Part shown: in pieces, positions 795 through 50,546 of the stretch
Position numbering within the stretch: position 1 is the first letter of the stretch
How the letters are laid out: each line of letters opens with the position of its first letter
Virus record (IMG/VR): IMGVR_UViG_3300005581_000001
Location: 33,582 to 97,581 of that record
Direction: 5' to 3' (one strand)
DNA length: 64,000 nucleotides
DNA from: a virus
Position numbers and translations under genes: made by a program
Notes under the pieces: model-generated
What the model was told of the DNA's origin: nothing
Seen by the model: the letters and a program-made list of their open reading frames with translations, nothing else
The model's database searches: none

Positions 795-3464
795 ATGGAA
801 AAAAACAACTATTTTAACAACAATATCAATCCAAAATATAATAATTACTTAAATATGAGACAATATGCTCAAGGTGGAAACCTTACTCGCTTTGATGAAG
901 GCGGAACTCACGAATCATCTCCATTAGGCGGAATACCTCAAGGACAAGCTCCTGATGGGAAACAAAATACAGTTGAACAAGGAGAATCTAAAAAAGGAAA
1001 TTTTATTTATTCTAATAGAATAGCTTTAGATAAAGAATTAGTTAAGCAATTTAATCTTCCTGGTTATGTAGCTGGTAAGTCTGTCTCTGATGCTTCTAAA
1101 GCTATAGACGATAAGTTTAAAGATAGAGCTGATAAATATGCTCAAGAAACAAAATCTACACTTCTTGATAGATTATCTCAAGCTCAAGAATATCTTAAAC
1201 AACAAGAACAATCTACAGAAGAGCAAGCTAATCAATCAATGCAAGCTAATTCTCAGCAAATTCCAGACCAAATGAACGGTCAAATTCCTGAAGGAATGGA
1301 AGAGTATGCTCAAGAAGAGCCTCAGCAAGGTGAAGAAGTTCAAAACATTCAAACGCCCTCACCTATAGCTGCTTTTGGCGGCTATCAACAAAAAAGATAT
1401 GATTTTGGAGGTGTTGCGCCAATAGATGCTAGTGCTGGCGTTGGATATAATTTTAAACCGCAAGCAATGACTTCTAATTCTCCATTGACTAGTCCTTCCG
1501 TTTTAGCTAATGGACAAGGAACAACTGGAACTGGAACATCCACTTCTGCAACTCCGTCTGCTGGTCCAGGAGCTGGAGCTATAGTAGGAGCTGCGGGTAC
1601 AGCTATGGAACTAGGTCAACTAGCTTTTGGAAAAGCTGCTCAAGATACAACTGGATTAGCGGCTTCTGGACGTGTAGGTGGTGCTGGAATGGTAGGTGGA
1701 GCTGCTTTAAAAGGAGCTGCTGCTGGAACTGCTATTATGCCAGGAATAGGTACTGCTATTGGAGCTGGAGTAGGTCTTTTAGCTGGAGTTGCTGGTTTAG
1801 GAAAGGCTAGAAAAGCAGAAGAGAAAAACACTAACAATTTCGCATTAAATACAAATTCTCAATTTCAAGATCAACATGCTTTTGGTGGAGATTTAAATGG
1901 CCCTGGTAAAAAAATAAAAAATCCTGATGGTTCTTATAGTATTGTTAATACATCTACAAGACAAGTAACTCCTGGTTCTGTAGGAACTACAATTCCTGGA
2001 ACACCTGGAAGTCCAGCGGTTTTACCTTCTGCAGGTGGAGTAAATGCTACTGACCCTGGAAGAAATAAAGCTTTTGCTCAAGCTAGAGCATCTGGATTAC
2101 CAACATTCAATTATAATGGTAAAGTATATAATACTGACATTAAATTAGCAACACCTGGAAGGCCAGCTGTAAATCCTACACCAAGTATCGTAACTCCTTC
2201 AATACCTCCAACATATGAAACTCAAACATCTGTAGAGCCAATACCAAATCAAGTTTACAATGTTCAAGCTCAAAGAGGAACAGCTGGAACTGGAGTTTTA
2301 AGACCTGGAATAGGCGGTGGTATAACTACAAATAATCAATATACAGCTAATCAAGACGTGGCAAATAGAGCTATTAATGCTCAGCAAGTTTATAATGTGG
2401 ATGTTAATAGAAGATATGCTCCAGTAGTAGATGATGGAAGGAGTAATAACTCAGCTCAAATAGCTAATAGGAATGCTAAAGCTGAATTAAGAAGACAACA
2501 ACTTCAAGGAACCGCAACTGCTACTGAAATACCTACACAATTAGGTTTGGAGAGAAAGAAAGTTGAAGCTTTAAGAGGGGCAGATTCTTTTGCTTATGGA
2601 GGTAAGATGAATCAGTATCTAAAAGGAGGTCCTTTCGACGTTACTGAAGATTTGACTCCAGAAGTGACGAAATTTTTAATGCAAAAAAATCCTAATCCAG
2701 AAATAGGAAATACAACTGCTTTGTCTGCATATAATAATGAAGCTATAAATCCTGGCTTATATTCAACAACTAAAGAATTAGATGGTGATAGATATAGTCT
2801 TAAAAATAGACTTGGAAGAGCTGGAGAGACTTTAAAAGAAAATGCAGGTGATTTAATGAGATTAGCTCCAGTAGCTATGAATGCTTATCAATTAAGTAAA
2901 CTTAAAAAACCACAAGGTTTCCAATACAACACATTAAACAATAGATATGTTCCTCAATATGTTGATGAAGCCCAAATGCAAAGAACAATTGACCAAGAAG
3001 GTAATAATCAAATGGCGGCTATAACTCAAATGGGAGGTTCTGAAGGTGCTACTCGTAATGCAATACTTGGAATAGGTGCTAATAAAATGAGAGGACTAAG
3101 CGATGCTTATGCAAATGCAGCAGCTCAAAATAGAGCTCAAGATTCAGCGGCTCAACAATTTAATTTAGGAGTTGATTCTCAGAACGTAGCTATTAGAAAT
3201 AAAGCTATTGATGAAAGAAGAGCTGATGAAGGAGCTTATGATGCTGCTAAATCTAAATTTAGATCTGTAATCGGAACGGATGTTGGAGAAATTGGTAAAG
3301 AAAAGAATGCTTCTGATGCGGCTATCGCTATGTTTGGATATACTAGAAAAGGAAAATTTGTAGTAGATAAGGATGGTAATAAAGTTAGCCCAGAAACATT
3401 AGCTAGAAGGCAAGCTGATTTTGCAAAATATATATCAGAACAAAATAAAAAAGCAAATACATAA
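795..3464 (+). CDS. Virion cargo/ejection protein, 889 aa
   Basis: N-terminal GGTHESSPLGGIPQG...VEQGE...IYSNR motif typical of crAss-like virion proteins; glycine-zipper hydrophobic segment; repeated xxxGG motifs. Confidence 0.6.
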   Translation: MEKNNYFNNNINPKYNNYLNMRQYAQGGNLTRFDEGGTHESSPLGGIPQGQAPDGKQNTVEQGESKKGNFIYSNRIALDKELVKQFNLPGYVAGKSVSDASKAIDDKFKDRADKYAQETKSTLLDRLSQAQEYLKQQEQSTEEQANQSMQANSQQIPDQMNGQIPEGMEEYAQEEPQQGEEVQNIQTPSPIAAFGGYQQKRYDFGGVAPIDASAGVGYNFKPQAMTSNSPLTSPSVLANGQGTTGTGTSTSATPSAGPGAGAIVGAAGTAMELGQLAFGKAAQDTTGLAASGRVGGAGMVGGAALKGAAAGTAIMPGIGTAIGAGVGLLAGVAGLGKARKAEEKNTNNFALNTNSQFQDQHAFGGDLNGPGKKIKNPDGSYSIVNTSTRQVTPGSVGTTIPGTPGSPAVLPSAGGVNATDPGRNKAFAQARASGLPTFNYNGKVYNTDIKLATPGRPAVNPTPSIVTPSIPPTYETQTSVEPIPNQVYNVQAQRGTAGTGVLRPGIGGGITTNNQYTANQDVANRAINAQQVYNVDVNRRYAPVVDDGRSNNSAQIANRNAKAELRRQQLQGTATATEIPTQLGLERKKVEALRGADSFAYGGKMNQYLKGGPFDVTEDLTPEVTKFLMQKNPNPEIGNTTALSAYNNEAINPGLYSTTKELDGDRYSLKNRLGRAGETLKENAGDLMRLAPVAMNAYQLSKLKKPQGFQYNTLNNRYVPQYVDEAQMQRTIDQEGNNQMAAITQMGGSEGATRNAILGIGANKMRGLSDAYANAAAQNRAQDSAAQQFNLGVDSQNVAIRNKAIDERRADEGAYDAAKSKFRSVIGTDVGEIGKEKNASDAAIAMFGYTRKGKFVVDKDGNKVSPETLARRQADFAKYISEQNKKANT

Positions 3465-5299
3465 TGAATAGATATTCAAACTACGAAACATCAGCATATA
3501 AGCCAATGACCACTCAAGAGATTTGGGCTCCTGCTGCAGCTATGAGACAACAACATAACGCAGCTGATGAAAAACTACAGACACAGATAGCTGAATTAGA
3601 TAAAGTTAATCCTTTAGATGTTCATTACGATAAAGCTCAAAAAATTAAATCTGACCTCCTAAAACAAATAGAGGGTCAAGCTGAAGTTTTATCTAAAGAA
3701 GGTTTTAACGGAAATACAACATCTGGTGTATATAGAACAAATAGACAACTTCACGAACAGTTTTCACCAACAGGAGAGCTTGGTCAAATCAATGCGGCTA
3801 AAACCGCATACGATACTGAAAAAGCAACTTATTTAGATGATGCTACTAAAACTTCTAAGATAGGTCGCGAACAGGCTTTAAAGAACTGGAATAGATACGC
3901 AAAAGAAAAATATACTGGATATAGCGAAGATGGTAAAAAAATAACAAATATAGGAGCTTTAGGCTCTCCTGCTTATCAAGATTATGAAACCGACAGAAAT
4001 CAGTATCACGCATTGCTAGGTAAAATTACTAGTTCCGCAAAAGCTAGTGGACATGCTATAGTTCCTGATGCTACAACTGGATTATTAATGATGGTTAATA
4101 GAGGTGGAAACGTGGTGCATTCAGATAATATTGATGCTTTAAATAACGCAATGAAAGGTATGAAGGATAAATGGGTTAGTGAAACTGGAGAAGGTCGTAA
4201 ATGGGCTGATGCAGCTGGATGGGACCCTAATCATACTAACTATAGAATCAATCAAGACTTTAACGCGATGAAAGAAATTTCTAACGTTGATAATAGAACT
4301 GAAAATTATGATGTACTATCAGGACAAACGCCTGGCGGTAATCGACCACAGCCAATAGTTCCAACAACTATACATGACCCAAGTACGCAGAAAACGGTTG
4401 GAGAATCTATTAAAAAAATAGATTTTAGTTCTATAGGTGCTAATAGACCTGGTTCAAAATATTCAGATAGACAAACATTTCAAGGATATAATGACGCCCC
4501 TAGAAGAGATTATGTTCCTGCAGGAAAAAATACCTATAAGGACATTATTAAAGATCCCGTACAACAACAAATATATAAAAAATCTTATGAAAAACTTGTA
4601 GCTAATGGCAAGATACCGCAAGGTCAAGATATAAACGATATAAATACAGCTAAAGTTGTTGGTTTTTATATGAATAAATATGCTAAAATACCAACTATAG
4701 CCAACGATGTTATTCTTCCAGATAGTGCTACAAATTCTCAACAATTTATGGGTCAATTTGATAAAAAACCTGGAGCTCAAAGAGATGCAGAAGCTCAAAG
4801 AGATTTAAATAATGGATATAGAAGTATTATAGAGCCTGGAACTAATCGCGAATTAACTCCTGATGAATTTAGAGCAAAGGGGTATAAAGTTAAATACATA
4901 GGTTACGATAGTCATTTAAGTTATAATGGTTATAATTTTAAAGGAAATAATAAGAATAAACAAACTGTGTTAACGCACAAAGTTGAAGTTATTGGACCTG
5001 ATGGAATTTCTTTAGGACAAGCTCCTATGACTAGAAGTAGACAAGAAATGGATACTCCTGAATTTAAAAAATCATACCAAATAAGTCAAATATATAGAAA
5101 CGCTGTTGAACGTTTTGATGACTGGGTTGTTCCAAAAGCATCTGATAATACAAAAATTAAATTTAAAGAAAACGGTATGTTTGATATTATTTATAATGGA
5201 AATTTATATGAAAATGCTACTGGGCCTGAATATGAATATATTATGGATAAAGCAATGACTGAAAAACAAATAAAAGATGAGTCTAAGAAGAAAGAATAA
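3464..5299 (+). CDS. Putative virion-injected protein, 611 aa
   Basis: Long ORF coupled (TAATG) to the previous gene, inside the cargo block. Confidence 0.55.
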   Translation: MNRYSNYETSAYKPMTTQEIWAPAAAMRQQHNAADEKLQTQIAELDKVNPLDVHYDKAQKIKSDLLKQIEGQAEVLSKEGFNGNTTSGVYRTNRQLHEQFSPTGELGQINAAKTAYDTEKATYLDDATKTSKIGREQALKNWNRYAKEKYTGYSEDGKKITNIGALGSPAYQDYETDRNQYHALLGKITSSAKASGHAIVPDATTGLLMMVNRGGNVVHSDNIDALNNAMKGMKDKWVSETGEGRKWADAAGWDPNHTNYRINQDFNAMKEISNVDNRTENYDVLSGQTPGGNRPQPIVPTTIHDPSTQKTVGESIKKIDFSSIGANRPGSKYSDRQTFQGYNDAPRRDYVPAGKNTYKDIIKDPVQQQIYKKSYEKLVANGKIPQGQDINDINTAKVVGFYMNKYAKIPTIANDVILPDSATNSQQFMGQFDKKPGAQRDAEAQRDLNNGYRSIIEPGTNRELTPDEFRAKGYKVKYIGYDSHLSYNGYNFKGNNKNKQTVLTHKVEVIGPDGISLGQAPMTRSRQEMDTPEFKKSYQISQIYRNAVERFDDWVVPKASDNTKIKFKENGMFDIIYNGNLYENATGPEYEYIMDKAMTEKQIKDESKKKE

Positions 5300-26199: not shown

Positions 26200-27468
26200 T
26201 TATTTGTTTATTTTATTATATTCAGCAATACATTCTTCAACATTTCCTTTATAAATATTGTAGTCTACTGCATTTTCCATCATTTTGTTTAGCCATACAG
26301 TTTCTTGAGTTTCTAACGTATGTAATATAAATATATTACCATCTTTATCGCCATCTTGCCTTAATCTACCTATTTTTTGAATAAAACCTACCTCTGAACT
26401 GTAATAAGACATTATAATACAAGCGCCTGCTTTTTCTAGATTAGCTCCTTGAACTAACTTTTTAAAAGAGGCTATCGTTTTAATCATACCTTTATCAAAC
26501 ATAGATCTTATATCCTCATTATTTTTGTCACTATTTTTAGAGGAAACTACATATGGTGTAATCAACTCTAATTGTTTAATTGAATTTCCAAATATAACTG
26601 TTTTTTCTTTAATTTCTTTTAACAGTCTTTTAACTATAGCTACTTTTTCTGGCAAATTATATAATAAAGTAGCTCTTCTCGACGCTAATCTAGCTAATTC
26701 AATTTCTCTTTTTTCACTCCATCTATAAAAATCAATACTACTTTCTGTATGCTCGGAATCTCTTTCTTTTTTAAATAATAAATCTATATAATTATACGAA
26801 GAGGCTTCTGTTTGATAGAATTTATGTTTAGCATTTCCTGCTTCAATATTTTTATCAGTTTTATTTAAATAACTTTCTACTATAAAAATATTTAATTTTC
26901 TGGAGGTGCCTTCATTTTGCCCTTGATTAATATTGTATTTGTAACATATTGGAGCAAATCTATTTAACATTTGTTCTTTAGAAACAACCAAACCTTTAAA
27001 CACCCCTGACAATGCACTATCTTCATTCACTGAATAAAATATACTGCCATTAAACATTGCTGTTAATCCTAAAATAGCTTCAGCTTCATTATTTACATAA
27101 AACTTATAATTCATAGGTGATATAGAGTCTGGGATTTCATCAGCTATTACTAATCCAAACTTTCGTCCAGACCAATTTCTAACAGTTTGATAACATTGAA
27201 ACTCTATATCGTAATCTTGTAAAACATTGCAATTGTAAATGTTATTGAATTTAGTAACATCCTTAATAAAGTCTCTTAACCTATCTTTTTGTTCAGCTAA
27301 AAATAAATGTTTTACAGTCCTATCTAAAGGCATTGTGTATAAAGCTTTTAGAGAAAGAAATGTTTTACCTAATCCTGTTATAATTTCAGTAGTGCCACGT
27401 TTTCCAGACTTAATCCAAGCGTTTAATGCTTCATCTTGAATTTTACTTTTTTGTTCATTTAATTCCAT
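26200..27468 (-). CDS. Superfamily 2 helicase
   Basis: TGLGKT Walker A, IADEI(P), LGLTA and QKIGRLR motifs. Confidence 0.85.
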   Translation of the reverse strand: MELNEQKSKIQDEALNAWIKSGKRGTTEIITGLGKTFLSLKALYTMPLDRTVKHLFLAEQKDRLRDFIKDVTKFNNIYNCNVLQDYDIEFQCYQTVRNWSGRKFGLVIADEIPDSISPMNYKFYVNNEAEAILGLTAMFNGSIFYSVNEDSALSGVFKGLVVSKEQMLNRFAPICYKYNINQGQNEGTSRKLNIFIVESYLNKTDKNIEAGNAKHKFYQTEASSYNYIDLLFKKERDSEHTESSIDFYRWSEKREIELARLASRRATLLYNLPEKVAIVKRLLKEIKEKTVIFGNSIKQLELITPYVVSSKNSDKNNEDIRSMFDKGMIKTIASFKKLVQGANLEKAGACIIMSYYSSEVGFIQKIGRLRQDGDKDGNIFILHTLETQETVWLNKMMENAVDYNIYKGNVEECIAEYNKINK

Positions 27469-28117
27469 TTTGTTTAATTAGTTTTAAATAAGATTCTTTT
27501 GAACAATTATCTAATTTATAATTATTTTTTACTATGTTTCTGGTAAAATTATTATTTATTCCATCACCTTTATCTAATTCACACATTATTTGTTCCGTAG
27601 TAAGTGATTTACATCCACAAGGTAACATTAAGATATGATTTGAATTATATCCATAACTTGAACGTAATGGTAGTTCGTTATATTCTACACAGAATATATT
27701 ACAAGCTAATGTAAATAACAATCCTTTATCTATATCTTCAAAATATCTACATAAATTAATAAAGTGTTTTCCAATTACATGAAAAAGATCTTGAGACCCT
27801 AATTTCTCATATAAACACCTAACAACCATTCCAGTATATTGTAAATATGATTTATTTTGACCATTATAATTTAACTTTAGGTACAAATCTTTATTAATGT
27901 ATACTTCGGTAAAATCAATTATTCCTATTTTTTTTATTGATGATAAAAATAAATTTAAATCATCTTCACTATATTCACTATATTTGTAATTTTCCAGTAT
28001 TATATAGTAATCTCTTTTTAATCCGTTTTTATTATCAATAATTATTGAATTATTAAAATAACTGAAACAACCTGTTTCTCTATGCATTTCTTTACCTATC
28101 ATAAAACTATCAGCCAT
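27455..28117 (-). CDS. Hypothetical protein, 220 aa
   Basis: ORF in the operon; CFS...RCLYE...NSNH pattern. Confidence 0.55.
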   Translation of the reverse strand: MADSFMIGKEMHRETGCFSYFNNSIIIDNKNGLKRDYYIILENYKYSEYSEDDLNLFLSSIKKIGIIDFTEVYINKDLYLKLNYNGQNKSYLQYTGMVVRCLYEKLGSQDLFHVIGKHFINLCRYFEDIDKGLLFTLACNIFCVEYNELPLRSSYGYNSNHILMLPCGCKSLTTEQIMCELDKGDGINNNFTRNIVKNNYKLDNCSKESYLKLIKQNGIK

Positions 28118-28159
28118 ATTTTCTCATATTTAATTATTTATCTGTTTACTTTAAAAAAA

Positions 28160-28228
28160 ACAAGTAGCCAGGAATCGAACCTGGCTTTACTGTTAGACTT
28201 GGCGTATTACCATTCATACTATACTTGT
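28160..28228 (-). ncRNA. tRNA-like element with no paired anticodon arm
   Basis: Acceptor ACAAGTA/TACTTGT, D arm GTAT-GAATGGTA-ATAC, T arm GCCAGG-TTCGATT-CCTGGC; only ~18 unpaired nt between the D and T arms. Confidence 0.65.
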
Positions 28229-28238
28229 TAATTATTTA

Positions 28239-29987
28239 TTATATTCCGCAAGAACCCCCATGACCACTAATTTCACAAATATCGTGGAATTCTTCCTTAT
28301 ATTCGTTTCCTTCGTGTTCTTTTGCATCTTTATAGGATACTGGAGTTAGCGGTTGTCCACCCCTACTACCGTCTGGGTAACAAGTGAATCCGCGTAATCT
28401 TGAGGCGTATTTAGCAAGAACTAATGCAAAATCATTAACTCTTGTATCGTTGTTTAATTCTGTTCCCCATTTTGGGATATTTATTGTAGAACTTATTGAC
28501 ATATCAACGTAGTCTTGAATATCAGCTTGAAACTTAATCCTTCTTTCAAAGTCTTTAGCCAAATCAATTGCTGTTTCAATTTTGTTGGGGTCTAATCCAT
28601 ATTTATTAATAAGTATTTTAGCTGTCCCATCTATAACATATTGATAATGCCATTCTTTTTGCCCTTTTAAATATCTTCTTTTATATGCTACTGCAAATAA
28701 TGGTTCTATTCCAGTTGTTGTTCCTGCTAATATTCCAATAGTTCCTGTTGGTGCAATAGCTCTGTAAGCTACTGGCTTATTGATTTTTAATTTATTAGCA
28801 AGTTCATTAGCACCAGTTTCTGACCTATGTTGATAAACACTCATCCACTGATGTAATTCTGGAACTACTTCGTATCTATAATTCTTTTTTAATAGCCATT
28901 CGTGAACACCCATTAATCCAAGTCCTAATCTTCTGTTTTTTTCTCTAACATCATACACTTTCTTGTACGGTAAATCAGCTACCATTGTACCACAAAGCAA
29001 GAATTTAGAAACTAATTCGCATACTTCTTCAAATCTTTCGATTGTATCAATATTTGCCATATTTACAGAAGCTAGATTACATACATCACTATCATCTTCA
29101 GATGTGACCTCTGTACAAGCATTTCTAAGTGTTTCTAAGACTTTCTCAAAGAAGTTGAAACTGAAACCTGGTTCGCCAGTTTTCAAAGCTTGGCGACAGT
29201 TTTCCAAGAACGTTATAGGCACCTTAACTATAGGCAAGTTCGCAATTGCAGGCTTACCACCGCGCTTATAAATTTCTTCTAATTTTTTAAAAGGTATTCC
29301 GTAGATTTCCTCTAAAAAATCATTATCATAATTTAATGAAATATTTGTCATATCTAATGGAGCGGGATAGTTAAAGTCCTTCTCTTTTAGTTGCCCTATA
29401 GATAATTGATTACCATTATCATCATATGCTCCTGCAACCGGCATTGAATTCCAATCTTTACAATGTAAAAATTCTCCTGCGTCCCCGTGTTTCCAGTTTA
29501 ATGATGCATAAATAGCACTTCTTCGAGATCCGCCTTGCATGACTTCTCTTCCTATTTCATTAAGCATTTTCATTTTTGATAGAGGCCCAGAGGCAGTACC
29601 TCCAGTTCTTTTAATAATTGCCCCTCTTTTTCTATAAATAGAATAGTCATTTCCTATTCCGCCTCCAGTCATTAAACAACTTTCAGCTTTCCACGATAAA
29701 TTAGCCCAATCTTCACGACTATCCTCTTCGCTTCTTAACAAATAGCAATTGTTAAAAGCTTTAAATGGTCTTCCGCAATAATATAGATATCTACCGCCAG
29801 CGATAAATTCCATATTTGTATGCATTTCTTTAAGCTTGGCTTTATCATCCTTGCTTAAATAATCCCTACAAACATCTTCTATTAATGTGTCTGAAAGTTC
29901 TTTCCAGTCATTAGCTTTCTCGTGTTTATATTTATAGTTAAATATATTTTCACTAAATTCAGTTCTAAAATACTTATTCAAATTCAT
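28239..29987 (-). CDS. nrdJ: Ribonucleotide reductase, probably class II (B12-dependent)
   Basis: FNNCYL, GGGIG, NACTE active site, CNLASVN, APTGT and a C-terminal Cys pair; no beta-subunit gene nearby. Confidence 0.8.
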   Translation of the reverse strand: MNLNKYFRTEFSENIFNYKYKHEKANDWKELSDTLIEDVCRDYLSKDDKAKLKEMHTNMEFIAGGRYLYYCGRPFKAFNNCYLLRSEEDSREDWANLSWKAESCLMTGGGIGNDYSIYRKRGAIIKRTGGTASGPLSKMKMLNEIGREVMQGGSRRSAIYASLNWKHGDAGEFLHCKDWNSMPVAGAYDDNGNQLSIGQLKEKDFNYPAPLDMTNISLNYDNDFLEEIYGIPFKKLEEIYKRGGKPAIANLPIVKVPITFLENCRQALKTGEPGFSFNFFEKVLETLRNACTEVTSEDDSDVCNLASVNMANIDTIERFEEVCELVSKFLLCGTMVADLPYKKVYDVREKNRRLGLGLMGVHEWLLKKNYRYEVVPELHQWMSVYQHRSETGANELANKLKINKPVAYRAIAPTGTIGILAGTTTGIEPLFAVAYKRRYLKGQKEWHYQYVIDGTAKILINKYGLDPNKIETAIDLAKDFERRIKFQADIQDYVDMSISSTINIPKWGTELNNDTRVNDFALVLAKYASRLRGFTCYPDGSRGGQPLTPVSYKDAKEHEGNEYKEEFHDICEISGHGGSCGI

Positions 29988-32314: not shown

Positions 32315-34138
32315 TTAAATATCAGACATAATTATAATAGGCTCTTCTTCTGTTCTTTCAACATTAAAAGCATTGTCAGAACCGTAAGTATAATCAATCT
32401 TACCTAATACACCTTCAGCTATACTTCCTTGAACTATCCACTCTTTTTTCATCTCCACACCAAATCTATCTATTATTTTTTGAACCTCTATTTTTTTTTG
32501 AATTTTTTCAAAAGCGTTTTTAAGAGAATCGATTCTAGATTCTATAGGTGAAGGTTGATCTAATTGTTTTCGATTGTTACGTTTATTTAAAATTGGTTTA
32601 TTTTTTAAAGAATAATTTAAATTCTGAGATTCATCCCAATCTATTGATTTGTAGCAATAAATATTTTCCTCTTTACCTACTATATCCCCTTTGCAATTTT
32701 CGTCATAAATAACTCTTTTTCTTGCCTCTATGTAGTTTAAATGATAATTTACTAGTAAATCTTTATCTCCACTATTTAAGTTAATAAAATTTATAGAGTA
32801 ATTGCAAATCAATCTGTTAAGACTTATTCCATTTTTACCATCCAAAAAATAAGGATCGCTTAATATCCTATTTTGATTAGCAATAGTATAATTTATTAAA
32901 TAAGAATTAATAAACAGAAAGTTTAATATCTTATCGATATCATAAGTCGGTGTATGAATTCTAAACTCAATAGTCTCTTTATTACCAAAAATTAAAGGTA
33001 TAAGGTTGTGTGCATAATATCTTTTTTTGATATTCCACTTTTGATTACCATTAGGGTCTGAAGGGTGATTTTTAACGTTGTTTAAGTCACATTTATAATC
33101 ATAAAAGCTACTACCTTCAGTTAAGTGAGTGAACAAAACATCAAAGTTTCTATTTACTTGTTCCTTATTAGAATAATCTATAGAAGGTTCTAATTTAGAA
33201 TTTATTTGATGAAATGGAAATGGCTCTGAATAATTTTTTCTTTTTATTCCAAAATTATATTTTTTATAAAGTGGAAATAAAGAAAATATTTCTTCTTGAT
33301 AATTAGTTATTAATTTATAAAAAGCTAATATGAATTCAGGTGTTCTTGGTACATTTCCAATATGTAAATGTAAAGAGCAATCATCGTTATATTCAGTTCT
33401 TTTTTCTAATTCTTTAACGCAATCAATAAGGGCTTTAATTCCTTTTGCACCACTTAAAGGTATTGTTACATATTCTAATCCAGCTATACTACCATCTCTT
33501 AAAGGTATTAAGGGAAGTGCATTTAATTTTTCTTCTGGAAGAATACCTTTAATTGTTTCAAATTCAAATCCAAAAGTTAAATCTTTAAGTATTTTACTAT
33601 ATTTTTGAATAGTGGTATTTATTACAGGATTATAATTTTTATCATATCTAATTATATGATTATTCATCATTCCTTTTGAGTCATAAGGTAATGATTCTTT
33701 ATATTCCCTTTTAACCGTTCTAATCAAATTAAACTGATATGCACTTTTTAATGATATATGATAAAAATTACCACTAGATAATTCTTCTCTAAAAGATCTA
33801 TTTATTATATTCTCATTAATACAAACATACATTTTTTTATCTTTGTCTATTAAATATGCATTACTAAAATCAGTATTAAAATAGCCAAAAACAAAATCGG
33901 AATTTTTTTCCATCTCAATTATTCCGTAAGTTAAATTATCATTTTTTAATTGATAATTTTTAAAAGTATTATTAAAAACTACTCTTCCAGTATTCATTCT
34001 AATATATCTTCCATCAATTAAGTAAACATCTCCTGAGTTTTCGATATTACTATCTCCAATTAAGTAATATTTTTGATCTATTAGTCTGCAATTAGATTTT
34101 TTAGATACTTTACCACTTATCGTTATAACTTCATCCAT
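32315..34138 (-). CDS. Putative amidoligase (glutamine synthetase/GCS-fold COOH-NH2 ligase)
   Basis: FGFEFE, RDGSI..LEYVT.PL, SLHLHIG and TIEFRIH motifs. Confidence 0.8.
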   Translation of the reverse strand: MDEVITISGKVSKKSNCRLIDQKYYLIGDSNIENSGDVYLIDGRYIRMNTGRVVFNNTFKNYQLKNDNLTYGIIEMEKNSDFVFGYFNTDFSNAYLIDKDKKMYVCINENIINRSFREELSSGNFYHISLKSAYQFNLIRTVKREYKESLPYDSKGMMNNHIIRYDKNYNPVINTTIQKYSKILKDLTFGFEFETIKGILPEEKLNALPLIPLRDGSIAGLEYVTIPLSGAKGIKALIDCVKELEKRTEYNDDCSLHLHIGNVPRTPEFILAFYKLITNYQEEIFSLFPLYKKYNFGIKRKNYSEPFPFHQINSKLEPSIDYSNKEQVNRNFDVLFTHLTEGSSFYDYKCDLNNVKNHPSDPNGNQKWNIKKRYYAHNLIPLIFGNKETIEFRIHTPTYDIDKILNFLFINSYLINYTIANQNRILSDPYFLDGKNGISLNRLICNYSINFINLNSGDKDLLVNYHLNYIEARKRVIYDENCKGDIVGKEENIYCYKSIDWDESQNLNYSLKNKPILNKRNNRKQLDQPSPIESRIDSLKNAFEKIQKKIEVQKIIDRFGVEMKKEWIVQGSIAEGVLGKIDYTYGSDNAFNVERTEEEPIIIMSDI

Positions 34139-36093
34139 TATTTATAATTTTTATCTATTATTTCGTCTAAGAACATTAAATAGTCTTCATTAATTTCGAT
34201 GATTTCTTGAACAAAATCTTCTTCTTTGAATTTAGAAAGAGTATCTACGCTTTCTTGAATTTGTAAATAAATAGGAGACATTAACATATCTACAGATTTT
34301 TTTATACAATCTTTTTCAATTTTATTAATCTCTATTTCTTTATCTTCAGTTTCATCATCACTAGTTACTTCTAGGTTATTTAATTTACATAAATCAACAA
34401 ACTTTCCTTGTATTGAATTATTTTCTATGTTTTTATTTATAAAAGGAAATTTTGAATCTTGTTTAATATCTAAAGATAATTGATTGTTTTTATTGTATAA
34501 ATCAACTGCTGAAAAATCATCTTTAACACTTTGTTTTTCCAATAATATAGTATTAACTAAAGAGCCTTGATCTATGTAATAAATTTTACTACTACCTAAA
34601 GGACAAACATTACCAGTAAAAGAAGTTCTTTTAAAGATAATTGTTTTAGATTTTTGGTGATAGCTAACTTTACTACTTATTTCAATAATAGGATGCTTAG
34701 ACATTTCTGATAAATCCCAAATATTATAATTTTTGATTTTTTGATCAATAACTTCATAATCAAGTTTTGTTTCAAGCATAATTCCTTCATAAAAATAATG
34801 TAAAGATGGAACTTTTTTATTTTCAGTTGTAAATGGAGTTATAGTAAATTCATCTTCAGCATTTTCAACTTCGTCTTCATTAAAATATCCATATTCTAAA
34901 TCAAAAGGCCTATCAATCATTGTTTTAGTTTTTTCTTCAGCTAATTTTACATCTTTAGTTAAAGACACAAATCCGTATTCTTTAATCCAAACACAAATTC
35001 CACTTATTAAATGGCCATTTCTATTGTATCTTAATTTATTAAAAGTTATGGGGGATTTAAAAATTCTAACGTCTTTTTCGTTTAAAATTTCTTCTTCCTT
35101 TTCGTTCTTTTTTGACTCTTTTCTTAAGTCCTCCCACTCAGTATCTTGTTCCGTATCTTTCCTTCTAACGTCCCATTGATATCCGCAAACATTATAATGT
35201 TTCTTAATTGTAGCTGGTTTTTGAGAAGTATTCTTTCTTGAAATTTCAAATTTTTCAGCATTAGCAATATTTCCATCAGTTATTTTGTAGATTGTATTTG
35301 GGCTAAAGCTAAATAAATCTTCATTTGCAATTCCTCCAATAGCTTCTAAACTTTCTTGTAATGAGGAAATGTATAAACTATTTTTAGATTCTTTATAATA
35401 ATATAAAGGTCTTTCTTCTAAATCAGCACCCTTATCGTAATCATCTAATCTTGACGCTCCTTTAAATGCATATAATATATTAGGCTCTAATGTGTTTGTA
35501 AATAATAAAGCAGCCCCTCCTACGTAGTCAGATAATACTTTAAAGTTTTTATTTTGATATATGATTTCTAATAATATTTCAGAATCAATTTTATTTCTCT
35601 TAAATGTATTTACTCCGTATGCATTAACTTCTTTTACATCGGTTTCCAATCCATGCATTTTTGCTAAATCATTTTGATTATATAATGTTCCATTATGAAC
35701 GCCTACAAATTCAAAAGATTTTTCATAGTCTCCAAAACCAAAAGGATGAGCGTTATCTGAATTTACATTTCCGCTACTAGATTTTCTAGTATGCCCTATT
35801 ACAGTTGGTATTAAAACAGGGGTATCATACCCCTGTTTATATAAAAAATCACTATAATGTTTAGAGCCTGTAATTCCATAATAGATTTCTCCATCTGTAC
35901 TTATCCCACAAGAATCACCGCCTCTTGAATCATTATATAATCCTTGAATATCAAATTTAGCTTTGTTGAAAGTTTTAACACTCTTACCTGCCCAACCGAA
36001 TATTCCACAAGATAAAATATTCATCTTTGGTTTAAAAATTATTATTCCTAATAAGTGTATTGTTAATAATATTAATATTATTTTTACTTCCAT
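34138..36093 (-). CDS. Class II (Ntn) glutamine amidotransferase with long C-terminal extension
   Basis: CGIFG, RGGDSCG, GHTRKS, NAHPF, HNGTL and DSE motifs. Confidence 0.85.
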   Translation of the reverse strand: MEVKIILILLTIHLLGIIIFKPKMNILSCGIFGWAGKSVKTFNKAKFDIQGLYNDSRGGDSCGISTDGEIYYGITGSKHYSDFLYKQGYDTPVLIPTVIGHTRKSSSGNVNSDNAHPFGFGDYEKSFEFVGVHNGTLYNQNDLAKMHGLETDVKEVNAYGVNTFKRNKIDSEILLEIIYQNKNFKVLSDYVGGAALLFTNTLEPNILYAFKGASRLDDYDKGADLEERPLYYYKESKNSLYISSLQESLEAIGGIANEDLFSFSPNTIYKITDGNIANAEKFEISRKNTSQKPATIKKHYNVCGYQWDVRRKDTEQDTEWEDLRKESKKNEKEEEILNEKDVRIFKSPITFNKLRYNRNGHLISGICVWIKEYGFVSLTKDVKLAEEKTKTMIDRPFDLEYGYFNEDEVENAEDEFTITPFTTENKKVPSLHYFYEGIMLETKLDYEVIDQKIKNYNIWDLSEMSKHPIIEISSKVSYHQKSKTIIFKRTSFTGNVCPLGSSKIYYIDQGSLVNTILLEKQSVKDDFSAVDLYNKNNQLSLDIKQDSKFPFINKNIENNSIQGKFVDLCKLNNLEVTSDDETEDKEIEINKIEKDCIKKSVDMLMSPIYLQIQESVDTLSKFKEEDFVQEIIEINEDYLMFLDEIIDKNYK

Positions 36094-39137: not shown

Positions 39138-39545
39138 TTATTTTGGTAATTGTAATTGTCTTACTAAACTTAATTTTATAAGTAATATATTCATTTCGCT
39201 TCCATTTGTTGATGTATAAGGCATATTACCAATTATAGATCCAGGAGCCATCCATTCTATTACATCTAAAGCGTGATTTCTGTTTAAATCTAATAATAAT
39301 ATTCTTTTTAATCCAGGATAATAACTACGTCTCATCTTTATAAATAAATCTCTAATTTTATATTTATTTAAATAAGGCATCATAGCACAAAAAGCATAAG
39401 CGCTCGCTAATTGACAATTATCTGTTGGAGCTTCTATATATTTAAATTCCGTTCTATATCCTCCTTTTATGGATATTATTACAGTATTAGGTTCACGACT
39501 CATATTAAAATCTTCTACTTCTCTTGGATCTTTAATTTCTTTCAT
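39138..39545 (-). CDS. Hypothetical protein within the amide-ligase cluster, 135 aa
   Basis: Overlaps the end of the ATP-grasp gene. Confidence 0.55.
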   Translation of the reverse strand: MKEIKDPREVEDFNMSREPNTVIISIKGGYRTEFKYIEAPTDNCQLASAYAFCAMMPYLNKYKIRDLFIKMRRSYYPGLKRILLLDLNRNHALDVIEWMAPGSIIGNMPYTSTNGSEMNILLIKLSLVRQLQLPK

Positions 39546-40440
39546 TGTATTTTTCTATTAAAAGTTTTGGCAATTCTTCTTTGTATTTTTCTAATGTAAC
39601 TTCTCCGAATGATGGCGCTGAATTCACTTCAATTACTATGAAATCACAATACGGTCTTTCGTCGCCATTTTCATCAATATTATTTTGAACTCTTAAATCA
39701 CAAGCTCCAAAATCTAATCCGCAAGAAACTACTGCATCGGTACAATGTTTAACTATTTCATCCCAATTTGAAGGTTTATCAAAGTTTTCATTGCCTTCTA
39801 AAATCCACACAGAGTTATCATCGTGTCTTTGCCAAGCATTAGGATGATCTTTAAATTCAGTTTTTAACATTTTTCTACAAGAGTAAAAACATCCATTTTT
39901 AGTACAGTGAAGCCTATATTCTTTATTAAAATTAATAAATCTTTCAAAAAGATAATTATCTAATTTTTTATCTTTTGCCCAGTTTTCTAATTCTTTTTGA
40001 GACTTGAGCAGATAGTTGCCAGTTCCTCTTGATCCAAAAAAATGTTTTGCTACAATAGGATATTTTAAATCCATAGGATCTACGTCAAAATCTTCGCTTT
40101 CAGATTCAATACTTCTATCTTGAAATTTTGATCCATTAAACATATACCATTGAGCTGTATTAACTCCTCCAGCACTAAAACATTCTTTCATTCTAAATTT
40201 AGAAGAACTATTTCTAATAGCTTCTTTAGAATTTAATTCAATTCTTTTACCTTCTAATGAAGACCTGTCAACTAATTCAGTTAAAGATCCAAATCTTACA
40301 ACTGATCTAAATGGTAATTTTGCAATTTCATATCTTAATTTATTATGAGATGGATGACGACTACGTATCATAGGTCTGTATTTATTACCATTAACATCTC
40401 CAATTGATTTTCTTAAAACTCTTTTAACTAATACTCCCAT
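39532..40440 (-). CDS. ATP-grasp peptide ligase (RimK/YheC-like)
   Basis: PIVAK...GSRGTG, EYRLH, GLDFGACD and IEVNSAP motifs. Confidence 0.85.
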   Translation of the reverse strand: MGVLVKRVLRKSIGDVNGNKYRPMIRSRHPSHNKLRYEIAKLPFRSVVRFGSLTELVDRSSLEGKRIELNSKEAIRNSSSKFRMKECFSAGGVNTAQWYMFNGSKFQDRSIESESEDFDVDPMDLKYPIVAKHFFGSRGTGNYLLKSQKELENWAKDKKLDNYLFERFINFNKEYRLHCTKNGCFYSCRKMLKTEFKDHPNAWQRHDDNSVWILEGNENFDKPSNWDEIVKHCTDAVVSCGLDFGACDLRVQNNIDENGDERPYCDFIVIEVNSAPSFGEVTLEKYKEELPKLLIEKYNERN

Positions 40441-42303: not shown

Positions 42304-42506
42304 TTTATAATTTTTTTAAACGATTATAACATCTTATAATAATTTCCATTTCTTTTTCTAATTTACTATAAAAGAATCCAGGCCTATATCTACATAATAA
42401 AAATAAATAATCATTTATAGATTCTTTATACTTTTTTAAAAGTTTTTGTTTTTTAATTAATTTTTTTATATATTTTATCATATTTATTTATTTTAATTAT
42501 TTATTT

Positions 42507-42577
42507 GCGGAGTGTGGGGAATTGAACCCCTTCCCACCATTACGTGCTGCCTTTACCAATCAGGCTACAACTCCTGC
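42507..42577 (-). ncRNA. tRNA-like element with truncated anticodon arm
   Basis: Acceptor-like GGAGT/ACTCC, D arm GCCT-GATTGGTAA-AGGC, T arm GGGG-TTCAATT-CCCC; only ~17 nt between the arms. Confidence 0.6.
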
Positions 42578-42623
42578 CATTAATAATTCCTACGTTTTTA
42601 AACTGCTTATTAATTATTTATTA

Positions 42624-49092: not shown

Positions 49093-49437
49093 AATTAATG
49101 TTGTTTAATTAATGAATTTTCATATAAAACTGTATTATTTTTATTGAAGAAATAATCATCAATAATATTTTGTTTTTTGGTAGTAAATGTTGTTTTTGTG
49201 TGTAATAAATACACAGGAAATCCTAATATGTCTACACATATTCTGCAATAAAATAATACTATAATCTTTTTCATATTTATTTAGTTTTAATTAGTTAATT
49301 GTTTGTTTATCATATATTGTTAATTATTAAAAAATGTGGGCTTATCAGCCGCTGCTTCACCGTTACAACTCCTCTTTCAAGTTGCACTGAGTTCACCCAC
49401 ATTAATCAACTAACTAAACATATTATGAAAATGTTTG

Positions 49438-49504
49438 TGAGATAAGGAAGAATCGAACTTCCATACACGGATATTCACCGCCCTAGCTTACTCATCGCTA
49501 TCTC
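49438..49504 (-). ncRNA. tRNA-like element with no D stem and a non-canonical anticodon loop
   Basis: Acceptor GAGATAG/TTATCTC+A, T arm GGAAG-TTCGATT-CTTCC, stem GCGG-TGAATAT-CCGT lacking U33. Confidence 0.55.
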
Positions 49505-49914: not shown

Positions 49915-50072
49915 GTTGATAGAACTTCACATACTATGTAATCCTATTCTATCTGGTAACACTGAGCTGTTACAGGGTTTGTCGTGATGCTAACTACATC
50001 CACAAACACGATACTTTCTTAGTGTTAGATCAAGTATCACAATCTTAACTGATTGATTATCAGTACTATACG

Positions 50073-50546
50073 TGGAGGTGGCGGTAATCGAAACCGCGTC
50101 GATCAATACTTTTGTTATATAATTTTATACAGCTTTTTGTAGAATTTAATCTTTAATGTCCCTTAAAAACTACTAAATGTGGACTAATACATAAAAGTTG
50201 CTTCTACATTGTAAGGGTTTTATGCTAAAATAATTTACTTCCTATTACTTTATGAACTGGTAAATCAACAGAATCCTCATAACCGTCGATAGGATACGTT
50301 TTGGTTCAGGGTTAGCGCACAACGCGAATTCTAACTTGCTGACCGTTTTAAACTTATGCTGCCAATTCTAATTCACCATAAATGATGTCAGATTTAACCT
50401 CAGTTCCACCATTTAAGATGTTATGAACTACTTGCATATTCGCTGATACTTGATCTTTGCCGTTTAAAAATATTCACCTTAGTTTACAGTTATCTCTCTG
50501 GCTGAATTATATAATTACTTGCACAACCTCAAAACCTGGCACCCCC
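50073..50546 (-). ncRNA. ssrA: tmRNA, 474 nt
   Basis: 5' GGGGGTG pairs with 3' CACCTCC-A, giving G3.U70 and A73 (Ala identity). T arm GCGGT-TTCGATT-ACCGC; 5' GGTTTTGA motif; internal frame ending LAA-stop. Confidence 0.9.
50354..50461 (-). other. tmRNA tag reading frame: GKDQVSANMQVVHNILNGGTEVKSDIIYGELELAA*
   Basis: GGC after TTTAAAC (inferred resume codon), then 35 codons to TTG GCA GCA TAA. Confidence 0.7.

Follow-up and report, generated by a model that had tools for sequence, protein, structure and literature searches.

Directly after the ribonucleotide reductase (RNR) gene of the phage genome analysed here lies a 69-nt element (el1, minus strand, 28228 to 28160) with the shape of a tRNA from which the anticodon arm is missing. 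The locus raises the question of whether such an RNA is the relic of a tRNA gene, a signal forming the ends of phage messages, or a product acting away from its gene. An earlier sequence-only reading had placed it in a possible tRNA-punctuation system. The window (the whole 64-kb stretch of DNA analysed, to which coordinates refer unless a locus is named) displayed 28% GC and came from a phage that encodes giant proteins and has a long replication module with its genes on one strand; the runs containing this phage were freshwater metagenomes. A Bacteroidota host is suggested because several genes were preceded by TAnnTTTG-type boxes. Relationships at the DNA level were weak, with 64-72% identity between the window RNR and RNR genes of Roseobacter phages, and a weak likeness between the window and a hypothetical gene of Cellulophaga phage phi14:2.

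A tRNA shape without an anticodon arm

The perfect acceptor stem, D arm and T arm and the approximately 18 unpaired nucleotides described in the sequence-only reading were all present in el1 (Table 1), and its distance of 10 nt from the RNR stop codon followed from the extent of the RNR reading frame, as that reading had it. Its description of the T arm held for the loop (TTCGATT) and overlooked an extra C (28167) between the T stem CCAGG/CCTGG and the acceptor 3' strand, which can pair with G44 and so lengthen the T stem to 6 bp and the coaxial stack of acceptor and T stems to 13 bp. The acceptor 5' strand and the D stem were separated by TA. The thermodynamic model gave the D stem a low pair probability (0.06). 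The spacer consisted of G26 and 17 bases without usable pairing, with CCA at its start. Altogether, 16 of 16 stem pairs were intact outside the anticodon region, against none of the five pairs of an anticodon stem. Base -1 was an A and the terminal CCA was not encoded, two features that count against a processed RNA. The element adjoined a protein gene at 21 kb from the tRNA cluster, and a search within the window for antisense targets, complementary to the unpaired spacer of el1 or to that of its sister element el2, returned none.

Table 1. Location of the RNA elements, their parts and the adjoining genes. Coordinates are those of the window, except for elX, whose coordinates are given per locus.
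Feature	Position	Strand	Remarks
RNR gene, class II-like	28239-29987	-	Last gene before el1; Pfam Ribonuc_red_lgC, E 2.8e-49; stop codon 28239-28241
12-mer ATAAATAATTAA, upstream of el1	28228-28239	-	Overlaps the RNR stop codon and the first base of el1
el1 acceptor stem, 5' strand	28222-28228	-	ACAAGTA; pairs with 28160-28166 (7/7); pair probabilities 0.31-0.94
el1 D arm	28204-28219	-	4-bp stem GTAT/ATAC, loop GAATGGTA with elbow GG; from the Rfam alignment
el1 spacer	28186-28203	-	18 bases, unpaired, replacing anticodon arm and variable loop; contains CCA and T-CTA-A, no stem
el1 T arm	28167-28185	-	6-bp GC-rich stem GCCAGG/CCTGGC, loop TTCGATT; pair probability 1.0
el1 acceptor stem, 3' strand	28160-28166	-	TACTTGT
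T-run (eight T)	28153-28160	-	First T is the last acceptor base of el1; common to elX-bearing strains
12-mer ATAAATAATTAA, downstream of el1	28130-28141	-	12 nt before the next start codon
Downstream gene (220 aa)	27455-28117	-	Adjoins the RNA slot in all relatives
12-mer ATAAATAATTAA, copies at el2	42610-42621, 42493-42504	-	Exact repeat
Hairpin just upstream of el2	42579-42614	-	Compensatory changes in three genomes (pairs 17-59, 19-57, 24-48)
el2	42507-42578	-	Bulged acceptor, D arm, 3-bp mini stem mid-element, 4-bp T stem, loop TTCAATT
el3	49439-49504	-	Inside the RNA gene cluster; acceptor, T arm, weak 4-bp pseudo-anticodon stem, loop with G at 33
tmRNA-like gene	50070-50546	-	Rfam tmRNA 33.7 bits, E 7e-10 (gathering score 47)
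elX	L042:1373-1490; L022:6120-6235; L097 about 4590-4710	+; -; +	Also in L096 and L098-L102

Tests for membership in the tRNA class

ARAGORN made no call for el1 in its bacterial, relaxed (lowered thresholds) and intron modes, and its metazoan-mitochondrial mode called the element among 28 mostly spurious calls. Against the Rfam tRNA model (RF00005), el1 obtained 18.3 bits (E 0.11 when 131 nt were searched), where the gathering score is 29 bits, and the alignment passed over the anticodon arm as a local gap; el1 was also unlisted in the Rfam search of the 64 kb. Searches of the whole window and of the narrow region with Rfam 15 returned only this weak tRNA match for el1. The element thus lay below tRNA thresholds both by score and by ARAGORN, in keeping with what the earlier reading had expected of tRNA callers. 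It lacked a 5-bp anticodon stem with a 7-nt loop and U33 (0/5 pairs), and displayed the 7-bp acceptor, the D arm with GG and the T loop TTCRA of a tRNA. el1 is unable to read codons.

Two other folds were considered and rejected. The D-armless tRNA-Trp fold of the ARAGORN mitochondrial mode, with a CCA loop, has a G at position 33 and ignores the clear D-arm homology; its predicted energy was -8.7 kcal/mol, against -16.8 kcal/mol for the cloverleaf without anticodon arm. A former amber suppressor, with T-CTA-A of the spacer as its anticodon loop, was unsupported because no stem remnant flanks CTA (the flanking bases give 0/5 stem pairs).

A stringent search pattern that combined, in register, the T loop, a 5-bp T stem, 7/7 acceptor pairs and a 4-bp D stem had el1 as its sole match in the window. 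Random 64-kb sequences contained 0.08 matches each, and 21 of 300 contained at least one.

When el1 was compared with 49 tRNAs from related phages and from the window itself, the best match was a tRNA-Trp(CCA), at z about 2.3. This tRNA has a similar D arm, and its acceptor (ACAGGTA/TACCTGT) differs from that of el1 by one compensatory difference. A derivation of el1 from a phage tRNA-Trp would accordingly stand at a chance of about one half.

Conservation and distribution of el1

Among IMG/VR contigs, el1 was carried only by G001 (95.5 kb, 98% complete; locus L023) and G002 (34 kb; locus L022). The element was identical to that of the window in G002 (69/69) and 94% identical in G001 (65/69). 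The stretch from the T-run to the next ATG reached 82% (G002) and 86% (G001), the downstream gene 73% and 67%, and the sequence upstream of el1 was unrelated to that of the window in both genomes. The changes in G001 were distributed over three parts of the element. In the D stem, replacement of C25 by T leaves a G-U pair; in the T loop, TTTAATT took the place of TTCGATT, keeping T54, A58 and a purine at 57, with the universally conserved C56 replaced by T; the remaining change fell in the unpaired spacer. One spacer base was also altered in the el1 variant of metagenome run X6. No stem-breaking change was seen in any el1 variant (three full sequences and partial contigs), and the three full sequences contained no double compensatory change. 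The 5' half (acceptor 5' strand, D arm and spacer; 43 nt) carried 0 and 2 changes in the two relatives and was conserved like the T arm. By our own estimate the pattern of changes was weakly non-random (p about 0.1), and the statistical support from the el1 variants is weak because the events are so few.

The selective retention of acceptor, D and T parts claimed in the sequence-only reading is borne out by the intact pairs outside the anticodon region, by an identity far above that of the flanks, and by compensated T stems in the sister elements (below). The element therefore appears to be under conservation rather than drifting, and its high identity could partly reflect recent cassette exchange among strains and not selection.

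Beyond these genomes, a 17-mer of the D arm had 33 further IMG/VR matches, all without the rest of el1 and most in what is apparently one conserved coding stretch. GenBank phage records contained nothing resembling el1 beyond chance matches of 21-37 nt. Since the exact T arm and acceptor 3' half had no match in 185,579 prokaryote genomes, there was no sign of an origin of el1 from a host tRNA or attachment site. An intact tRNA at this site in relatives, which would have pointed to ordinary tRNA decay, was found in no relative, and 21 more distant RNR loci harbored neither a tRNA nor a tRNA-like element after RNR.

Exchange of RNA cassettes in the slot after RNR

The slot between RNR and the 220-aa gene was occupied differently in close strains. 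The strain of run X5 had the downstream gene of the window and an RNR of the window type at 94% identity, with another RNA, elX, placed exactly between 28159 and 28237 and before the same T-run. Locus L042 displayed the same arrangement with elX alone, and G002 harbored elX and el1 in tandem. Contigs from runs X4 and X6 joined el1 to yet other flanks, these differences being located in part, as metagenome contigs covered the region 27700-28700 partially. In the more distant relative L045, a third structure occupied the slot, with a 9-bp closing helix before a T-run. Because strains have el1, elX or both in the same slot, el1 behaves as an optional, exchangeable cassette, in a slot that always ends in a helix abutting a U-run.

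Direct repeats of the 12-mer ATAAATAATTAA flanked el1 and el2, and these four copies were its only exact ones in 64 kb. Relatives displayed matching variants of the 12-mer on both sides of el1. The repeats fit cassette insertion at gene-junction motifs, and may be either boundary marks or a gene-junction signal.

The T arm and tail of el1 were scored as terminator-like (site 28186-28166; 7 pairs, 5 of them GC; 7-nt loop; tail ACTTGTTTTT), one of five such sites listed on the minus strand in 19 kb, and el1 displayed the GC-rich hairpin with a T-rich tract within 0-2 nt that defines an intrinsic terminator. The pure T8 begins 7 nt past the T-arm hairpin, directly past the closing acceptor helix. 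The strength of this terminator is uncertain because the acceptor is AU-rich and T8 lies 7 nt from the T-arm hairpin. In four of the 21 distant loci (L001, L005, L006 and L011), a plain GC hairpin with a T-run came directly after RNR, followed by a promoter-like box.

elX, the alternative RNA

elX was a structured, pseudoknotted RNA of 115-130 nt. Its hairpin loop GAAAAAGGGTTAAYAGTA, which can pair with a downstream TAACCC, was conserved, as were the motifs CTGTAG and GAAAGACCCGAA, and its closing helix co-varied. The elX core was found in seven other phage contigs, and in at least three of them (L097, L098 and L100) it lay directly between two tRNAs of a tRNA cluster, with its parts in circularly permuted order. 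No Rfam 15 family matched elX, and no ribozyme or riboswitch family could be assigned to it. In G002, el1 occupied next to elX the place that a tRNA occupies next to elX elsewhere. Because relatives of elX lie between tRNAs elsewhere, the RNR slot behaves as a miniature tRNA-cluster island. Islands of tRNA-cluster type are matured by tRNA enzymes. elX is a candidate for a new tRNA-associated RNA, possibly a ribozyme.

Sister elements and other RNAs of the clade

The two further elements that the sequence-only reading had located at 42507 and 49438 both existed (el2 and el3, Table 1), with compensatory changes in their T stems. The T stem of el2 was GGGG/CCCC in the window and GCAG/CTGC in G001 (locus L025), with two compensatory pairs. 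Despite an architecture like that of el1, el2 was not followed by a T-run. At the place of el2, G002 harbored a different, 61-nt tRNA-like RNA. In el3, five of 20 predicted pairs showed compensatory changes (three in the T stem, one in the acceptor), and the middle of the element was poorly conserved and without a conserved anticodon. Directly downstream of el3, the stretch 49330-49436 (minus strand) was very well conserved; it contained a hairpin AAACAT...ATGTTT and a structure of approximately 80 nt closed by GTGGG/CCCAC and followed by T5, and it closed the RNA cluster as a further unassigned RNA.

The tRNAs of the window (Met, Met-like and Cys) were clustered with the tmRNA-like gene at 49.8-52.5 kb. 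The latter was partly conserved in G001 and G002, received no ARAGORN call and did not encode CCA. The scan of the whole G001 genome gave about four tRNA shapes, two of them in the RNA gene cluster, along with one tRNA and the tmRNA-like gene. Canonical tRNAs were thus few and sub-threshold tRNA shapes several in the clade of the window, whereas more distant RNR-sharing phages encoded up to 25 normal tRNAs and almost no sub-threshold shapes. One more distant relative (G006, 3291-3359; L047:90-162, plus strand) encoded a perfect cloverleaf in which a 7-bp stem with a CCAA tetraloop replaced the anticodon loop. The same relative also encoded a 91-nt RNA (L048:46-136, plus strand) with acceptor and T arm and with other hairpins between them.

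Relation to known tRNA-like RNAs

The literature searched contained no account of elements like el1 in comparable phages. In its proposed working, el1 comes closest to plant mitochondrial t-elements, the mascRNA module of MALAT1, the T4 species 1 and 2 RNAs and YrlA. Phage tRNA genes usually enter the discussion only as decoders or as a means of countering anticodon nucleases. Canonical phage tRNAs and tRNA pseudogenes have the acceptor, D and T arms in common with el1, which departs from them by the missing anticodon stem, the extra base at the T/acceptor junction, the sub-threshold score, and conservation instead of decay.

Phage T4 encodes the species 1 and 2 RNAs (rnaC and rnaD), non-decoding RNAs with tRNA-like ends, which are made and processed with the tRNAs. 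Compared by description only, they are like el1 phage-encoded, non-decoding and tRNA-like; they are longer and lie inside the tRNA cluster, whereas el1 lies 21 kb away after a protein gene. In mammals, RNase P cleavage at the 3' end of MALAT1 frees the small mascRNA and leaves the preceding RNA with its 3' end. Both mascRNA and, on the preferred reading, el1 are tRNA-like folds at the 3' end of a longer transcript, but mascRNA is nuclear, keeps a shortened anticodon arm and has no U-run terminator, unlike el1 with its U-run.

Plant mitochondrial t-elements are non-canonical tRNA-like folds with the motif GGTTCRANYCC, situated beside coding regions in polycistrons, and mRNA ends ascribed to the action of RNase P and RNase Z fall at their boundaries (Forner et al. 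2007, PMC1920247). el1 contained this motif (GGTTCGATTCC at 28171-28181, minus strand) and resembles t-elements in its tRNA-like fold and its position beside genes. They are organellar and their processing has been mapped, whereas el1 is a phage element known from its sequence, abutting a U-run and behaving as an exchangeable cassette. The YrlA and Y RNAs (RF02553) mimic a tRNA in its acceptor, D and T parts, have no anticodon, and are acted on by tRNA enzymes through RNase P cleavage, CCA addition and modifications (Chen et al. 2014, PMC4201824). YrlA joins its tRNA-like domain to a Ro60-binding helix and its gene lies near rsr, neither of which applies to el1; a search of the window for RF02553 found nothing at E values of 10 or below, and no Ro60-like family was found among the 26 window proteins scanned, so that el1 falls outside this class by these tests. 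Nor was el1 a tRNA-like domain of the tmRNA type, its pair 3-70 being A-T instead of the alanine identity pair G3:U70, and its D stem being present.

Proposed working of el1 and alternative explanations

The reading that we prefer, at a probability of roughly 0.4, is that el1 is a tRNA-derived, perhaps tRNA-Trp-derived, non-decoding RNA that forms the tail of RNR transcripts, terminates them through its T arm and the U-run, and is probably freed by tRNA-processing enzymes. From the arrangement of its parts we infer how el1 would be transcribed, terminated and cleaved and what role the released RNA would have. Transcription of RNR would continue through el1, which would become the 3' tail of the message, and would stop at the eight U abutting the acceptor stem, past the GC-rich T-arm hairpin. 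In recognising their substrates, RNase P, RNase Z and the CCA-adding enzyme rely on the elbow and on the stacked acceptor and T stems and not on the anticodon. Because el1 has its acceptor stem, its D/T elbow and its T arm in intact form, the tRNA-end enzymes of the host would be expected to accept el1 like a pre-tRNA. Cleavage by RNase P would fall between 28229 and 28228, with trimming of the U tail and addition of CCA. A stable tRNA-shaped RNA of approximately 70 nt would be released, and the 3' end of the RNR mRNA would be set at the same time. The 13-bp stack arising from the extra C may shift or weaken the RNase P cleavage.

The slot always ends in a helix abutting the common T-run, whether el1, elX or the L045 structure fills it, distant relatives have a simple hairpin terminator there, and the T arm and tail of el1 follow the terminator rule. 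A tRNA remnant could therefore have been co-opted as nothing but the intrinsic-terminator hairpin and 3'-end protector of the RNR unit, with a tRNA shape devoid of a role and no tRNA enzyme acting on it. This is somewhat unlikely, as conservation of the 5' half, superfluous in a terminator, equals that of the T arm, elX with its length, its pseudoknot and its tRNA-cluster relatives exceeds the needs of a terminator, and el2 shares the architecture without a T-run; the first two points in particular argue against a mere terminator. The optional character of the cassette leaves some probability to this reading and to that of a relic. It is unlikely that el1 is a neutral relic, i.e., a former tRNA gene of an RNA island that has lost its anticodon stem and is itself being lost, its apparent conservation reflecting recent divergence or cassette exchange. 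The narrow distribution (the window genome, G001, G002 and a few metagenome strains), the loss or replacement of el1 in close strains, its position below tRNA thresholds and the loss of C56 from the G001 T loop would all fit a relic. The concentration of the damage in the anticodon stem (0/5 against 16/16 pairs) is, however, unlike uniform decay, the identity of 94-100% exceeds the 67-73% of the adjacent gene, no variant seen carries a stem-breaking change, and compensatory changes have kept the sister elements.

The released RNA might instead act in trans as a decoy or sponge, binding a host protein that reads tRNA shape (a defence toxin acting on the acceptor end, or a processing or modification enzyme), with presence and absence among strains reflecting an arms race. 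Elbow and acceptor are kept with decoding abolished, el1 behaves as an accessory cassette, the clade has several different anticodon-less tRNA shapes, and with the YrlA RNAs there is a precedent for tRNA mimics on which tRNA enzymes act (PMC4201824). None of the 26 window proteins scanned was a tRNA-related enzyme, no candidate presents itself as the partner, and we regard the decoy as quite improbable. Least of all is a genome-wide punctuation of mRNAs to be expected, in which tRNA-shaped signals would cut polycistrons into single messages as in mitochondria. el1 and el2 do lie between same-strand genes of a long array, and plant t-elements work in this way (PMC1920247), but only two sites were found among about 50 same-strand genes of the window. 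The punctuation system suggested as possible in the sequence-only reading is unsupported because G001, 98% complete, has only about four such elements over 95.5 kb, two of them in the RNA gene cluster; moreover, the el1 site is dispensable, the element being optional and replaced in close strains and absent from the 21 distant RNR loci.

The conservation in a phage of a whole tRNA minus its codon-reading part suggests that the tRNA shape itself is in use, in RNA-end formation, stability or the binding of a host factor. A wider conjecture is that the clade uses the bare tRNA shape as a carrier of trans-acting accessory small RNAs (e.g., soaking up a host defence or processing protein that reads tRNA ends), traded as cassettes with elX, which may help to process tRNAs; this we consider improbable. 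Close strains with el1, a different RNA, or both in exactly the same slot and before the same U-run constitute an unusually clean natural experiment. Because they vary at one slot, the question can be addressed by reporter constructs and RNase P assays.

Neighbouring genes

The 220-aa protein encoded downstream of el1 had no Pfam or PHROG family and no clear Foldseek match. Its AlphaFold model (pLDDT 88.6) resembled tandem KH domains over residues 1-108 at a middling Z of 8.2, a likeness that may be due to chance. When used to search for further loci, the single protein gave none and its alignment one new locus only.

The replication module also encoded an amidoligase, a glutamine amidotransferase and a RimK-like ATP-grasp protein (PHROG matches; 32315-36093 and 39532-40440, minus strand), a gene set known from other phages and without a settled role. 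A 58-aa, lysine-rich basic reading frame with two Cys (42308-42481, minus strand) started 25 nt after el2 and was conserved in G002.
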